Assembly (NCBI GenBank): GCA_965285935.1
Contig: OZ260661.1
Location: 20,646,001-20,710,000, forward strand
Direction of reading: 5' to 3'
DNA length: 64,000 nucleotides
Source of the DNA: Ophelia neglecta
Taxonomy: Eukaryota
The translations under genes were made by a program, and so were the position numbers. Positions within the stretch are counted from its first letter, which is position 1. Each line of letters starts with the position of its first letter. Below, piece by piece: positions 18,770 to 48,979 of this stretch. Under the pieces are notes generated by a model, which was given only the letters and a program-made list of their open reading frames with translations, was not told where the DNA came from and made no database searches.

Positions 18770-18864
18770 CCCGTGATAGCTCAGTTGGTAGAGCGGGAGA
18801 CTGTAGTGGTTGGTCAAATGACTGATATCTCTATAAATCACCGATTCGACTCCGGTTCGCGGGA
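18770..18864 (+). pseudogene. tRNA-Tyr(GTA) variant, 20-nt intron, altered variable loop/T-stem
   Basis: The 5' exon is perfect. The 3' exon reads ATCTCTATAAATCACCGATTCGA instead of ATCTCTAGGTCACTGGTTCGA. Confidence 0.75.
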
Positions 18865-19446: not shown

Positions 19447-19533
19447 TCCCGCGAACCGGAGTTGTACGTGACCTAGAGATATCAGTTATTTAACCACTAC
19501 AGTCTCCCGCTCTACCAACTGAGCTATCACGGG
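19447..19533 (-). pseudogene. tRNA-Tyr(GTA) with disrupted T-loop/B-box
   Basis: Reverse-strand copy. The GGTTCGA region is replaced (plus strand GTTGTACGTG). Confidence 0.8.
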
Positions 19534-21549: not shown

Positions 21550-21638
21550 TCCTGCGAACCGGAGTCGAACCAGTGACCCAGAAATATCAGTTAGTTAACC
21601 ACTACAGTCTCCCGCTCTACCAACTGAGCTATCTCGGG
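21550..21638 (-). pseudogene. tRNA-Tyr(GTA) with several stem substitutions
   Basis: Full length, but the acceptor (CCCGAGA/TCGCAGG) and anticodon stems carry mismatches. Confidence 0.75.
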
Positions 21639-26900: not shown

Positions 26901-27454
26901 GTGATTAATCACCCAGACATACTACTTATACAGTAGCTATTACCGGTACACCGAAAGTGGGTCATGTTTTTGATCAAGGACGCGAGAGGGGGCAGGAATA
27001 GGGGGGGGGGGGCACTTTAACTTATCGAAGTGTGTACTGCTGGAGGACAACCAACCCCGCCAATACACCTTTATAAATCAAAGTAGTATTTTGCTTAGGC
27101 GTCAAAGATCTTCAAACGCAATATTCTGTGCGCAGAAGTAATTAGCGTTGCCATAACACAGATTCAGCAGTGGTGCAGTGTGGTCCACGGACGGGATGGG
27201 TGTATGGAGAGGTCAAGGTGGGGGGGGGGGGGGGGTTGATGGGATGGGATCATTGGTAAGGCTGATAAGGAGAGATGAGGCTGGGGTAGGGGATTGGTTC
27301 GGCGAAAAATAACTTTCTTTCTTCTTTCTGTAAATAAAAATTTATTCGGCGATGCAAAAGTATTGTGGTTACAGTTTTAAAAGTAACGTTTATAATAGTT
27401 ATTGATATGCAACTGTTTAATTTATTTGTTTACCTTCGTTTGCAAAAGAACTAT

Positions 27455-27594
27455 TCCCGCGAATCGGAGTCGAACCAGTGACCTAGAGATATCAGTTAGT
27501 TAACCCATAGATATGTATAATCCATTTATATGTATTCTCTATATTTATGGTTAACCACTACAGTCTCCCGCTCTACCAACTGAGCTATCACGGG
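27455..27594 (-). tRNA. tRNA-Tyr-GTA: tRNA-Tyr(GTA) with intron expanded to 67 nt by an insertion
   Basis: Both exons are present with one T-stem mismatch. 140 nt = 89 + 51 inserted. Confidence 0.78.
27506..27549. mobile_element. 44-bp palindromic mini-element (CATAG…TTATG) with 7-bp TSD
   Basis: TSD GTTAACC at 27499-27505 and 27550-27556. Removing the element and one TSD restores the intron of the 21550 copy. Confidence 0.8.
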
Positions 27595-30198: not shown

Positions 30199-30391
30199 AC
30201 ACAATAGACAGGCACTCCTTTTCCATAGTGTGGTAACGCTTCTCTCGTTCAGAGAGTTTTTTGCTGGCAAAGCTAACTGGATGCAGCTCTCCATCATGAC
30301 TCTGAAGCAAAATAGCCCCGACACCTGTGTCACAAGCGTCGGTGCGCAGAACGAATGGCTTTCCAAGGTCGGGTAATTTCAACACAGGTTC
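30199..30391 (-). repeat. 193-bp inverted copy of 34055-34247
   Basis: Reverse-complement match, also visible as identical peptides in the ORF track. Flanked by the direct repeat AGAAGACACA (30194-30203 and 30394-30403). Confidence 0.92.
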
Positions 30392-30424
30392 AGAGAAGAC
30401 ACATGGGCAACACATTTAAGTGCT

Positions 30425-33400
30425 TTGTTGACAGGCAACGCCTTAACTGTGTATTCTCGCCTGGCCGAGGAAGAGTCAACAGATTATGAAGTATTAAAAC
30501 ATGCCCTGTTTCAGAGATATAATCTGACTGAGGAAGGATACCAAAAGAAATTCAGGGAGGCTAAGGCAGAAAAGGGAGAAAGTCCCTGGCAATTTATTAT
30601 ACGAATCAAGGAGTATTTGAATAAATGGATTGACCTGGCGGAAGCAAGAGACAATATAATAGACTTGCTCATAAGGGAACAGTTTATTGAAGTTTGTCCA
30701 AGGGACCTGGCTATTCATGTAAAAGAACAATCACCAAAATCATTGGTGGACTTAGCTTCTATTGCTGAGCGCTACCTCACAGCTCGACATAGGCAACTAC
30801 ATGTCAGTTCAAGCTACTATAATGCTCAGTCAAATGACAAGCAACATAGAGAGAGACAGGTGACTGACAGACCAAATCAAAACAGGCTGCAGTGCTATTT
30901 CTGTCGAGGCTACGGACATAAAGCAGCTGACTGCAAAGTACGGCTACAACAAAATTCAAGGTTAGGCATGCGAAGGCCTACAGAAGGTAGACAGGTAGCA
31001 CAGAAAGCAGCTAGTGCTGTTCAAGAAGCTCCAAAACAAATAACCGATGAAAAAGCGGACGTTGCTGAACCTAATAAAACAGAAGAGAAGGAAATCGTAG
31101 CAAGCAATGCGTGTATAATACCAATATCTTCAGAATCAATAACTGTCACGAGTGCTCTACAACCAAGGCGAGATAGATACTTACCTGTGATGAAGGGCCA
31201 GGTTGGTAATAGGATAGTAGACACACTGCGTGACACCGGATGTACTGGAGTGGTAGTAAAAGAAAAATTCGTACATGACAGTCAGTACACGGGTGAAAAG
31301 GGGAGAATGATACTGATTGATAAAACAATCAGAGAGTACCCGATAGCTAGAATACAGATAAATACACCATATTTTGAAGGAACAGTTTTGGCACAGTGTG
31401 TACCAGATGCAGTGTATGATTTAGTAATAGGCAATATCCATGGGGCAAGAGATGCTGATAAGCCAAACGAATACTGGCAGTACAGAACCAAAAATTGGCT
31501 AGAGCAATCTGAGCACAAGGAGACACTGCAGGAAGCCTTTAGGGAGGGAGTATGCGCTGTAACTACAAGAACGCAAGCACGCAAAGCAGCGGTGGTTACG
31601 GCACTCAAAACTCCAAATAATAAACAATCAGGAGGCCTGCCAAACATTAACAAAAACGAACTAGAAAAATTACAAAAAGAGGACAAAACTCTTCTGAAAT
31701 TCCGGGAAATGCCTGACACGAAGGTGACCGGAAATAGCAAAGTTTCCTATGGAATAAAAGATGGTGTATTGTTACGAAATTTTGAACATACAAAGCACAC
31801 CCAAGGATCTGCTATTCGACAGATATGTGTGCCAAATGGCCTGCGTGAGGGTATAATGGAGCAGGCACATGACTACGGAGGACACCTTGGGGTGAAAAAG
31901 ACCATGGACAGAATACTTACAAATTTTTATTGGCCAGGAATGAGACAGAGTATTGTAAAGTACAAAAACTCATGTGACATTTGTCAAAAAACAATCCAAA
32001 AGGGGAAAGTGAGAAAGGTTCTCTTAGAAAAAATGCCACTGATAGGTGAGCCTTTTTGCAGAGTTGCTGTTGACCTAGTAGGCCCTATCCACCCGCCTAG
32101 TGAACAGGGACATAGATATATACTAACACTAGTGGATTATGCAACAAGATACCCAGAGGCCGTCCCTCTCAAAAATATTGACACAATTACGGTAGCAGAA
32201 GCACTTCTGGACTTTTACAGTCGTTTAGGGTTCCCCCAGGAGATCTTGACCGATCAGGGAACTCAATTCATCTCTGAATGTATGGCAGAGGTGAACCGCC
32301 TCATAGGGGTAAAACAGTTAACTACTACTCCATACCATCCTATGTGTAACGGTCTGGTGGAAAAGTTTAATGGAACCCTGAAGATGATGCTCAAGAGATT
32401 GTGCAGTGAACAACCTAGAATGTGGCATAGGTACATAAACTGCCTTTTGTTCGCTTACAGGGAAGTGCCGCAGGAATCTACTGGTTTTTCACCATTTGAA
32501 CTTTTATATGGCAGAACGATCAGGGGCCCTATGAGAATGTTGAGGGAGCTTTGGAATGATGAGATAACCGATCCGATCATCAAAACGACATACCAATATG
32601 TGTTTGATCTGAGAGAGAAAATGGAAGATACTCTCTTAATAGCTCAGAAAGAACTTGAAAAGTCACAGGGGAAGTATAAGAAACATTTTGACAAGAAGGC
32701 AAAACCTAGAAAGTTCGATGCCGGTGACGAAGTACTTATCCTTCGTCCCACAGATTCGAACAAGCTTCTCATGCAGTGGAAAGGCCCCTACAAGATAGAA
32801 GAAGTACGTGGTTTTAGTGATTACAAAGTGAAAGAAGGAAAAAGGTCAACTGTTTATCACTGTAACATGTTGAGGAAATACGTTCGACGAGAAAACACAC
32901 ATGACAGTGCAAACAGCTGCATCTTACCTGTAAATGAACCGCTGGTATGGGACATTGCATGTGTGGGAGTGGTCGAATCGGCTGGTGAATATGATGATGA
33001 ATGTGTGGATGATGATGAACTGCTGGAAATTGGGACTAGTATTAAGAAAGAATCCCTACAAGATATCACTTTCGACAAAAACTTGAATAACGAACAATAC
33101 CATGAACTAAAGGCCTTAGTGAATGAGTTTGAGGACATTTTCACTGATGTACCAGGAACCACTTGTTTGATCGAACACCACATAAACTTGACAAGCGATG
33201 AACCAGTGCGGTCCAAACCGTATCCCCTACCCTTTAGTTTACGGGAGTCGCTCAGGGAAGACATTCAGGCTATGCTCAATACGGGAGTAATACGCGAGTC
33301 AACTTCCCCATATGCAGCCCCTGTGGTAATAGTGAAGAAGTCAGATGGCACCAACCGGGTCTGTTGTGATTACCGAAAGTTAAACAAATTAACAGTAGTT

Positions 33401-34456
33401 GATCCCGAGCCGATGACAACTGATAAAGAGATCTTTAGCAGCTTGAGTGGGGACAAATATTTCTCAAAAATTGACTTGAGCAAAGGATATTGGCAAGTTC
33501 CGGTAGCCGAGGAGGATATTCCAAAGACAGCATTTGTCACCCCGGATGGAACGTGGGAATTCGTAAAAATGCCATTCGGAATGGTTAACTCAGGAGCTAC
33601 ATTAGTACGTGCCATGCGGAAACTGCTGAAAGACCTAAAAGCAGTGGACAATATTATTGATGATGTTTTAACCCACACACCAGGATGGCCGGAACACTTG
33701 GCAACACTTAGAGAACTTTTCAAACGCATTCGAATTGCAGGGTTCACAGTTAGACCCTCTAAATGTGTTCTTGGTGCAGAGGGAGTCACTTTTGTGGGTC
33801 ATTACATTGGTCGTGGGAGTGTTAGTCTGCACGAAAACAACATTGATAAAATCAAAAGGGCTCCAAGGCCTACGACAAAGAAAGAAGTTCGTTCATTTCT
33901 GGGACTAACAGGGTACTACCAGGATGCGGTTCCAAATTACGCCGCCGTAGCAGTACCTCTCACTGATCTTCTCCGGAAGGGTCAACCAAACAAGATTGCG
34001 TGGGGCCACCCCCAAGAGAGGGCATATTCTACATTGAAGCAAGTATTAATCGCAGAACCTGTGTTGAAATTACCCGACCTTGGAAAGCCATTCGTTCTGC
34101 GCACCGACGCTTGTGACACAGGTGTCGGGGCTATTTTGCTTCAGAGTCATGATGGAGAGCTGCATCCAGTTAGCTTTGCCAGCAAAAAACTCTCTGAACG
34201 AGAGAAGCGTTACCACACTATGGAAAAGGAGTGCCTGTCTATTGTGTGGGCAGTTAAGAAATACATGATGTACTTGTACGGAGTGAAATTCACGCTCCAA
34301 ACTGATCATCAGCCATTAACATATCTGGGAAAGGCAAAATTCGCCAGTGATAGGATTATGCGATGGGCCATGTACCTACAGAACTATAACTTTGTAGTTG
34401 AAGCTATACCTGGTAAAGTGAACCACGGGGCAGACTTTTTGAGTAGAGTTAATTAA
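30425..34456 (+). CDS. Gag-Pol polyprotein (SCAN-like gag, CCHC knuckle, protease, integrase, reverse transcriptase, RNase H); true N-terminus lies upstream and is frameshifted
   Basis: Motifs in order: CYFCRGYGHKAADC; LRDTGC; AHDYGGHLG…CDIC; VDLVGP…TDQGTQF…NGLVEKFNG; KIDLSKGYWQV…MPFG…IIDD; TDACDTGVGA…EKECL. The upstream gag frame (…APKLPSF…RFERFA…WPEDT) resumes as WATHLSALLTG after a 200-bp insertion. Confidence 0.93.
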   Translation: MLTGNALTVYSRLAEEESTDYEVLKHALFQRYNLTEEGYQKKFREAKAEKGESPWQFIIRIKEYLNKWIDLAEARDNIIDLLIREQFIEVCPRDLAIHVKEQSPKSLVDLASIAERYLTARHRQLHVSSSYYNAQSNDKQHRERQVTDRPNQNRLQCYFCRGYGHKAADCKVRLQQNSRLGMRRPTEGRQVAQKAASAVQEAPKQITDEKADVAEPNKTEEKEIVASNACIIPISSESITVTSALQPRRDRYLPVMKGQVGNRIVDTLRDTGCTGVVVKEKFVHDSQYTGEKGRMILIDKTIREYPIARIQINTPYFEGTVLAQCVPDAVYDLVIGNIHGARDADKPNEYWQYRTKNWLEQSEHKETLQEAFREGVCAVTTRTQARKAAVVTALKTPNNKQSGGLPNINKNELEKLQKEDKTLLKFREMPDTKVTGNSKVSYGIKDGVLLRNFEHTKHTQGSAIRQICVPNGLREGIMEQAHDYGGHLGVKKTMDRILTNFYWPGMRQSIVKYKNSCDICQKTIQKGKVRKVLLEKMPLIGEPFCRVAVDLVGPIHPPSEQGHRYILTLVDYATRYPEAVPLKNIDTITVAEALLDFYSRLGFPQEILTDQGTQFISECMAEVNRLIGVKQLTTTPYHPMCNGLVEKFNGTLKMMLKRLCSEQPRMWHRYINCLLFAYREVPQESTGFSPFELLYGRTIRGPMRMLRELWNDEITDPIIKTTYQYVFDLREKMEDTLLIAQKELEKSQGKYKKHFDKKAKPRKFDAGDEVLILRPTDSNKLLMQWKGPYKIEEVRGFSDYKVKEGKRSTVYHCNMLRKYVRRENTHDSANSCILPVNEPLVWDIACVGVVESAGEYDDECVDDDELLEIGTSIKKESLQDITFDKNLNNEQYHELKALVNEFEDIFTDVPGTTCLIEHHINLTSDEPVRSKPYPLPFSLRESLREDIQAMLNTGVIRESTSPYAAPVVIVKKSDGTNRVCCDYRKLNKLTVVDPEPMTTDKEIFSSLSGDKYFSKIDLSKGYWQVPVAEEDIPKTAFVTPDGTWEFVKMPFGMVNSGATLVRAMRKLLKDLKAVDNIIDDVLTHTPGWPEHLATLRELFKRIRIAGFTVRPSKCVLGAEGVTFVGHYIGRGSVSLHENNIDKIKRAPRPTTKKEVRSFLGLTGYYQDAVPNYAAVAVPLTDLLRKGQPNKIAWGHPQERAYSTLKQVLIAEPVLKLPDLGKPFVLRTDACDTGVGAILLQSHDGELHPVSFASKKLSEREKRYHTMEKECLSIVWAVKKYMMYLYGVKFTLQTDHQPLTYLGKAKFASDRIMRWAMYLQNYNFVVEAIPGKVNHGADFLSRVN

Positions 34457-41444: not shown

Positions 41445-41522
41445 TCCCGCCAACCAGTGACCTAGAGATATCAGCCAGTCTACCACAACAGTCTCGAGCC
41501 GTACCAACTGAGCTATCATGGG
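41445..41522 (-). pseudogene. tRNA-Tyr pseudogene (11-nt T-arm deletion, GTT anticodon)
   Basis: 78 nt; carries the same lesions as 44814-44891. Confidence 0.85.
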
Positions 41523-42369
41523 TACACACAAAACTAATAGGAATATTTCATTTTTCTATATACCTAACAATGTCGCCATTTATTAGTTTCAGGTTTACAT
41601 ACATGTAGTTGATCACCTGCATGTATGCTGCGGTGCAGTGAATATACAGCATCTGGTACATTTAGCGCCTGGGGAGTGCCTATTAGGACTCTGATGAACT
41701 ATTTCAGCTATTGTTAAACCTCAAAAGAGCTATAAGAATCATTATATCCGTCCGTCTACTGTTGGGAACATACGTTTCTCAAAATTAAATTTTATTTGAT
41801 TAGTATATATGTACACGGAATTGTCATGTTCTTTGGTCAGGTTTACAATGGGGCTCTACCAGGAGTAGTGAAAACATATTTCTCCCCCTTCCCCCACCGC
41901 CCTTCCCTGCCCCCCGGCCGCTTCCAAGCTGATGCCGGCCAGACCTCTCCCCCTGTACCGAAAGCAATTAGGCCTACTATCAGAGAGACAACCTCCCCCC
42001 CCCCCCCCGTCAAACCTTCTTTTGTCTATGTGCACAGTGACTCGTGTGTTTATTTTTTTTTGTTCTTTCTTATATTTCTTGCCTGCACAATAATTTTGTA
42101 ACATGCACTTCAGGGCGTCCAGAAACAACAGCTTCATCAGCTACCTCTGGCGTCCTTGGCAATGCAATCTATTTACAAAATCGTCTGTTATATGTACCAA
42201 GTGTTATGCCGAATAAAACGAATGAATGAATGAATGAAACCTTATGCAAAGTTTCCACAAGATTAAATCATCCATTGTCAATTGTCAATGGGCCACTTTG
42301 AGGACACCCATCACATAGGCCTAACCTCCAAGTAAGGCTCTCCGCCCCTCAGGAGGATTATGTTGGTGT

Positions 42370-44563: not shown

Positions 44564-44813
44564 GGCTACACTTTTGAAAGATTTCATATCAATTATTTTT
44601 ACAGGAGAAATTCATTTTCATTTTACGCATGTGGTATATTTTATATGCCCGGGTATAAAACTTTCCATGTGCTTAATGTACTAGATGCTGTATATTCACT
44701 GCACCGCGGCATACATGCAGGGGTTCAACTGTCTGTATGTAAACCTGAACTAATAAATGGCGACATGGTTAGGTATATAGAAAAATGAAATATTCCAATT
44801 AGTTTTGTAGGTA

Positions 44814-44891
44814 CCCGTGGCAGCTCAGTTGGTACGGCTCGAGACTGTTGTGGTAAACTGGCTGATATCTCTAGGTCACTGGTTGGCGGGA
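44814..44891 (+). pseudogene. tRNA-Tyr pseudogene (11-nt T-arm deletion, GTT anticodon)
   Basis: Inverted twin of 41445-41522. Confidence 0.85.
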
Positions 44892-48859: not shown

Positions 48860-48979
48860 TTATCGTCGGACATTAGACACCTGGGCGATGTCTATCAAAT
48901 TATGGAAATTGTACCATGCAATGCTACATGCAGACCTTTGCTGGTTGGCAGGCGAATTGTCGGTTCGTCTTATATACAT

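Follow-up and report, generated by a model that had tools for sequence, protein, structure and literature searches.

The window analysed here, a stretch of 64,000 nucleotides from Ophelia neglecta, contains clustered tRNA-Tyr(GTA) genes with 16 Rfam matches, nearly all of which have a 16-nt intron after position 37. One minus-strand copy, at 27455-27594 and matched by Rfam with 44.6 bits, has an intron of 67 nt (27491-27557), which is also placed after position 37 by the intron search of ARAGORN and in which the G at the third-last base is kept. Its 5′ exon (27558-27594, tRNA positions 1-37) is the same as in the majority copy. The 3′ exon (27455-27490, positions 38-73) carries the exchange G64A at window position 27464, which breaks the C50-G64 pair; the single-nucleotide difference that the original prediction had placed in the T stem is real. 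A run of four T on the same strand, 8 nt past the gene (27444-27447), would likely act as Pol III terminator.

The long intron is composed of the original 16 nt, a 44-nt insert (27506-27549) and a 7-nt duplicate. Read on the plus strand, the insert is flanked by GTTAACC on either side, the left copy of this target-site duplication being at 27499-27505 and the right copy at 27550-27556. If the insert and one duplicate are taken away, what is left is identical to the 16-nt intron of a paralogue at 21550-21638 (minus strand), which has the pre-insertion intron and, being a different locus, is a stand-in for the empty site. This confirms that the intron, once 16 nt long, was extended to 67 nt by the 44-bp insert and its exact duplication of 7 bp. 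The insert with its duplication is not a chance feature: when the window was scanned generically for any CA..TG insert of 20-70 bp flanked by an exact duplication of 7 bp, the 44-mer was the single case, and 20 mononucleotide shuffles of the window gave none.

The same cluster contains decayed tRNA-Tyr copies (1024-1112, 41452-41542, 44811-44884, 18770-18864 and 19447-19533). Elsewhere in the genome, 23 tRNA-Tyr genes are tandemly arrayed with a spacing of ~1.27-1.4 kb (G000:C2:39218568-39247167), and the read depth of contigs suggests that the assembly may under-count the tRNA-Tyr genes of such arrays. Mobile elements of other kinds are also found in the window. A 1359-aa open frame at 30199-34453 encodes a SCAN domain and an integrase, followed by reverse transcriptase and RNase H; the order is integrase first, and the 198-bp repeats on either side of the stretch are inverted and not direct, which is odd for an LTR retroelement. 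The products of three transposon-type open frames (48877-50589, 52884-53993 and 54879-56063) are a pogo/Tigger-like DDE_1 protein, a YqaJ nuclease and a DDE_Tnp_4 transposase, the frames of the last two facing each other.

The proposed transposon origin of the insert, with related ends elsewhere, is borne out by the rest of the genome. A DNA search of this genome gave 40 scored matches out of 76 candidates, and the 30 matches that were fetched have in common the outer 18-20 nt of each end and mostly a 7-bp duplication, with differing short AT-rich middles. The exact end patterns occur 324 times for the left and 324 times for the right end, the reversed-pattern control not once. At 84 left and 90 right ends the sequence runs on into that of a longer parent. 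This parent family, designated here by its CATAGAT ends, is non-coding, about 0.8-2 kb long and has the same ends as the 44-mer; its inverted repeats are imperfect, ~31 bp long and start with CATAG, and it has an internal tandem repeat of 213 bp. Among 46 duplication-bounded elements of >75 bp (a set with one locus counted twice, one doubtful pairing and loci partly selected for a missing partner end), 19 have both parent ends and measure 797-3720 bp at the fetched loci, 25 combine a long end with one of 15-29 nt, and two have neither. The 7-bp duplication is exact in 18 of the 19 elements with both ends, and the short side is of <=21 nt in 18 of the 25 one-sided elements. Family members of intermediate size cover 94-2000 bp. 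The 3.7-kb member (L131) holds an insertion without an open frame of 150 aa. At two loci (L155 and L138) copies of the family are paired in inverted orientation at distances of 2-6 kb, and one duplication sequence is shared in inverted form; these are possible traces of local hopping or inversion.

Compared with this parent, the 44-mer is made up of three parts: a left-end tail of 20 nt that is identical to the parent (27506-27525), a filler of 3 nt, TTA, that is absent from the parent at that place (27526-27528), and a right-end tail of 21 nt with one substitution at 27545 (27529-27549). The insert had been described as an imperfect palindrome, effectively two terminal inverted repeats without a spacer. 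The palindrome stands, since the arms are complementary at 16 of 22 positions each. The second part does not: the parental inverted repeat is ~31 bp long and the insert keeps only the outer 20 and 21 nt, separated by the filler, and therefore it does not consist of two whole repeats. An exact search found the junction once in the genome of 762 Mb. The target GTTAACC matches GTTWWAC, the preferred target of the family, at six of seven positions.

For a census of the short relatives, 140 anchored records were read, 70 by the left and 70 by the right end, taken from the first 100 listed places per search on two contigs with already paired long or fetched places omitted; dropping of 13 duplicates left 127. 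Of these, 90 are inserts that measure 21-71 bp and are flanked by a 7-bp duplication, which is exact in 64 and has one mismatch in 23 more. With boundaries set by the duplication (up to 2 mismatches; calls at L045, L058, L200 and L207 are doubtful) and one end per record fixed at 18 nt, 87 of the 90 retain <=21 nt of either parent end. Their target sites are diverse, and there are 62 distinct sequences among them. The classes that recur are those in which the two parent tails are joined through microhomology: 38 bp joined via AT is the commonest (18 of 90), followed by a 27-bp class that lacks most of one end (16), two types of 34 bp (seven and six) and 40 bp via TA (four). The remaining, non-recurrent ones mostly have short fillers. 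Two further arrangements were seen, a scar with the right end three times in tandem (L236, G000:C2:10864195-10864246) and two scars within a local duplication (L184). Four records (L032, L034, L189 and L191) have one 19-nt left tail plus flank fused to unrelated sequence, a junction that reads as a single event copied by a larger duplication or repeat.

These data argue that the 44-mer is very probably a non-mobile excision footprint of an element that was itself probably of P type. It is composed of the end tails of the parent plus a filler within a 7-bp duplication, its short relatives share a limit of 21 nt at either end, and their junction types are those seen in the repair of fly P elements. 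The original prediction of a mobile transposon made of ends only, which would have come in at the size it has now, has some appeal: the 7-bp duplication is clean, both termini are present, and hundreds of short relatives exist, some of them identical at unrelated sites. Identical recurrence, one 27-mer being present in 15 copies, would taken alone also fit amplification. However, the recurrent sequences among the 62 are microhomology joins of parent tails, many relatives are without most of one end, and the junction of the 44-mer is unique; near-identical copies of it at independent sites were not encountered, the relatives ranging over 21-71 bp. Furthermore, a long staggered cut would leave such a unit with a duplex of 2-10 bp, and P elements require internal transposase sites beyond the terminal repeat, as described in PMC7776569. 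The idea of a mobile unit of this size is therefore not upheld and we regard it as extremely unlikely. A variant of the right end with a G, present in 47 copies, points the same way: in 29 of 30 loci read it is shared among ten scar lengths, as expected if scars arose separately from one parent subfamily. Among the 30 loci read out of 47, none had a long parent with the G-variant end.

It might also be argued that the 44-mer is the end point of an ordinary internal deletion in which a transposase cut had no part, and the intermediate sizes of 94-2000 bp would be in line with this. But breakpoints heap at <=21 nt on both sides in the census and, likewise, on the short side of the one-sided derivatives, and a second family in the same genome has a ceiling of its own at 18 nt. 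Family-specific ceilings are not predicted by random deletion, which makes this explanation very improbable.

How an excision footprint could have come about is outlined as follows. The non-coding CATAGAT parent exists, with the same ends and 7-bp duplications. A copy of it, probably roughly 1-2 kb in size at departure and a relative of the fruit-fly P element, would have entered the near-consensus target in the tRNA-Tyr intron. A P-type transposase acting in trans may then have cut both ends with a long stagger, which would have left single-stranded 3′ tails of 19-21 nt on the chromosome. By fly precedent, these tails would have been end-joined via microhomology or a templated filler, here TTA. 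Today the copy has the G64A exchange as well as a single change in the right tail, and it most likely persists because of gene redundancy. The one-sided elements fit incomplete gap repair followed by end-joining, the course described in PMC2895639. In contigs of three runs from one sample, an allele with the full element at the site was not seen; joins that skip 51 bp were present, which are not distinguishable from empty paralogues.

Does the parent belong to the P superfamily? The proposal that 7-bp duplications and CA ends fit this superfamily holds, and membership is probable, as judged from the ends, the duplication size, the anatomy and the scar pattern. Terminal repeats of the P superfamily start with CA. 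The CATAGAT repeats are short and do so as well, as do the ends of two elements with a P-type transposase (L114 and L130), and the duplication, which is 7-8 bp in the superfamily, is 7 bp in parent and scars. The ceiling of 21 nt per end would indirectly point to donor cleavage with a long stagger. The genome has P-type transposase matches (20 to PF21788 and 24 to PF21787). The autonomous element with the ends of the 44-mer was sought around these matches and at loci of the family and was not found: no transposase lies between CATAGAT ends within about 5 kb of the 20 PF21788 matches, in five further regions around PF21787 matches or in some 60 stretches where a family end is long or lacks its partner. 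Long open frames at these places turned out to encode retroelement proteins, inserted within the elements or lying next to them.

Autonomous P-type elements are present all the same (L114, G000:C2:23628032-23634633; L115; L130; L125; L112/L113). They are young, pairs being 97-99% identical, and have a second open frame of 230-365 aa on the opposite strand without a Pfam match. In a possibly incomplete Pfam scan of their open frames no THAP domain was seen. They have no DNA similarity to the CATAGAT family. Like it, L114/L115, L125/L130 and L112/L113 have CA-starting ends; L114, L115 and L130 have the 7-bp duplication, and L112, L114 and L117 have internal tandem repeats of ~205-210 bp.

The pair L114/L115 was used as control family. 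Both have the P-type transposase domains PF21787 and PF21788 and ends that start with CA, together with a 210-bp internal repeat and 7-bp duplications that are exact; the end pattern has 68 matches in the genome. Of 30 loci of this family, 20 records (18 places) are short scars, and 16 of the 18 retain <=18 nt per end, the anchored end being set to 18 by the pattern. A family with known P-type domains thus leaves the same types of scar, with a different ceiling. The two ceilings in one genome, 21 and 18 nt, suggest that the 17-nt stagger of the fly is not fixed in the superfamily.

The exact depth of the cut in the CATAGAT family is best given as a range. In scars of the control family, CAGAGAC (L312-L341), the 18-nt tail is nearly always followed by T or TA where the parent has G, which reads as a fixed first step of templated filling. 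An AT-rich filler may therefore imitate positions 20-21 in the CATAGAT family. A microhomology model explains 51, 44, 26, 19 and 16 of the 90 scars for tails of 21, 20, 22, 17 and 19 nt, respectively, but it omitted blunt and 1-nt joins and so under-rates the 19-nt tail. With a 19-nt tail, blunt joining would be required for the most frequent class, and blunt tip-to-tip joins are absent from the 18 scars of the control family; this favours 20-21 nt. The tail most likely measures 19-21 nt, and for a cut at 20-21 nt, our best estimate from the scars, we hold the chances to be slightly better than even. With staggers of 19-21 nt, a duplex of 2-6 bp would by calculation be left in an excised 44-mer, a poor candidate for a mobile unit.

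Whether the gene that bears the footprint still works is a separate matter, since a working gene would be compatible with the footprint. The full parent has 12 runs of at least four T in the direction of the tRNA, so the gene would have been dead while occupied, and it is tempting to speculate that excision rescued a gene that is now transcribed by Pol III and whose 67-nt intron is spliced, perhaps even circularised. The intron sits at the canonical position 37/38, the putative anticodon-intron pair partner is there, and the precursor, whose longest T run is 2, has no internal terminator. The anticodon stem is predicted with a pair probability of 0.80 and the intron as a hairpin of -12.7 kcal/mol (z -2.4); the C32-G pair is absent from the ViennaRNA prediction, both in the precursor and in the empty-intron form. 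Eukaryotic tRNA introns of 6-133 nt are on record in PMC4090602, according to PMC10485636 the position of splice sites is gauged from the body of the tRNA, and structured aptamers in place of the tRNA-Tyr intron are spliced in the reporters of PMC6614914. Splicing of the 67-nt intron is hence plausible. On the other hand, the cloverleaf is not intact: the C50-A64 mismatch lowers its predicted stability (-19.7 compared with -24.7 kcal/mol) and T-arm pairing in the precursor falls to 0.03 from 0.71 without G64A, in a folding model that scores T arms low (intact mature ones also reach only 0.08). A 20-mer from the gene has 71 exact copies in the genome, which makes ~71 gene copies and a rescue irrelevant, and nine of the 16 copies in the window deviate from the majority sequence. 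On balance we consider a working gene rather doubtful, and redundancy is the most likely explanation for the survival of the scarred copy.

The intron had also been seen as a safe harbour. This finds no support, given the ~71 copies, the T-stem mismatch and the distribution of the family. A targeting of tRNA genes as harmless sites, as by Dada, would account for an insertion that is improbable under a uniform model (about 0.0004-0.0007, for a site picked after the fact and ignoring the six-of-seven target match). However, only one of 230 scanned loci, duplicates and control family counted, has a tRNA call, which is the place of the 44-mer itself, and there is thus no sign of tRNA targeting. 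The target sites of the family are diverse, and a genome search for further tRNA copies with an intron of 21-51 nt between the exact flanks found none in that length range. Dada resembles the present case as a DNA transposon in a multicopy tRNA gene with a 6-7-bp duplication, but is described in PMC3706591 as target-specific, with fixed sites, and without terminal inverted repeats; the CATAGAT family has neither property and does not classify as Dada. We consider such targeting so improbable as to be nearly negligible.

What was found at this locus is most likely a known phenomenon, the P-type excision scar; of note are the apparently deeper cut and the finding that families in one genome have ceilings of their own. 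To our knowledge, the fly P element, with 17 nt, is the only member of the superfamily whose cut depth was mapped biochemically. The most far-reaching combination, a P-type family cutting at 20-21 nt beside one cutting at 17-18 nt and, in addition, a scar that restored a transcribed, spliced tRNA releasing a transposon-end hairpin or circle, appears quite improbable as a whole. If true, scars would map cut depth family by family; they are a free record of enzyme chemistry, and cut depth becomes a testable number. Tiny CA..TG palindromes in 7-8-bp duplications mimic minimal transposons and yet are exit scars, which annotations could misfile. Unless the copy can be shown to splice, its place in a tRNA gene is mostly a curiosity. 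Judged by titles or abstract openings, a genome-wide survey of natural P excision footprints in invertebrates was not evident, nor was a report of a transposon in a tRNA intron among the best-ranked literature matches.

Should the intron be spliced, the 67-nt hairpin could be excised and circularised in the manner of the tRNA intronic circular RNAs treated in PMC6614914, but unlike in those systems the host copy, known here from its sequence, has a T-stem mismatch. With 1360/Hoppel and Galileo the CATAGAT family has the 7-bp target duplication in common (as given in PMC3698922); its repeats of ~31 bp are short, whereas those described for Galileo are long. The closest parallel is the P element of Drosophila. 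Its transposase makes a 17-nt staggered cut, according to PMC7776569, and the donor sites retain 17-nt 3′ tails after excision, most of them being repaired by incomplete synthesis and subsequent end-joining, as laid out in PMC2895639; Table 1 there lists 14 AT joins, five TA joins and filler joins such as tail-GTTA-tail. As in the CATAGAT scars, the duplication is kept along with both tails, the latter to a length that does not exceed a fixed ceiling; tip joins via AT or TA are common, and short AT-rich fillers and one-sided products of gap repair occur. The differences are in the numbers and in the setting: the duplication is 7 bp in the CATAGAT family and 8 bp in Drosophila P, the ceiling is 21 nt (with a tail of probably 19-21 nt) as compared with 17 nt, and the two CATAGAT ends differ from each other at five of the first 21 positions. 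Finally, the junctions in Drosophila were laboratory events, whereas the CATAGAT scars are natural and spread over the genome.
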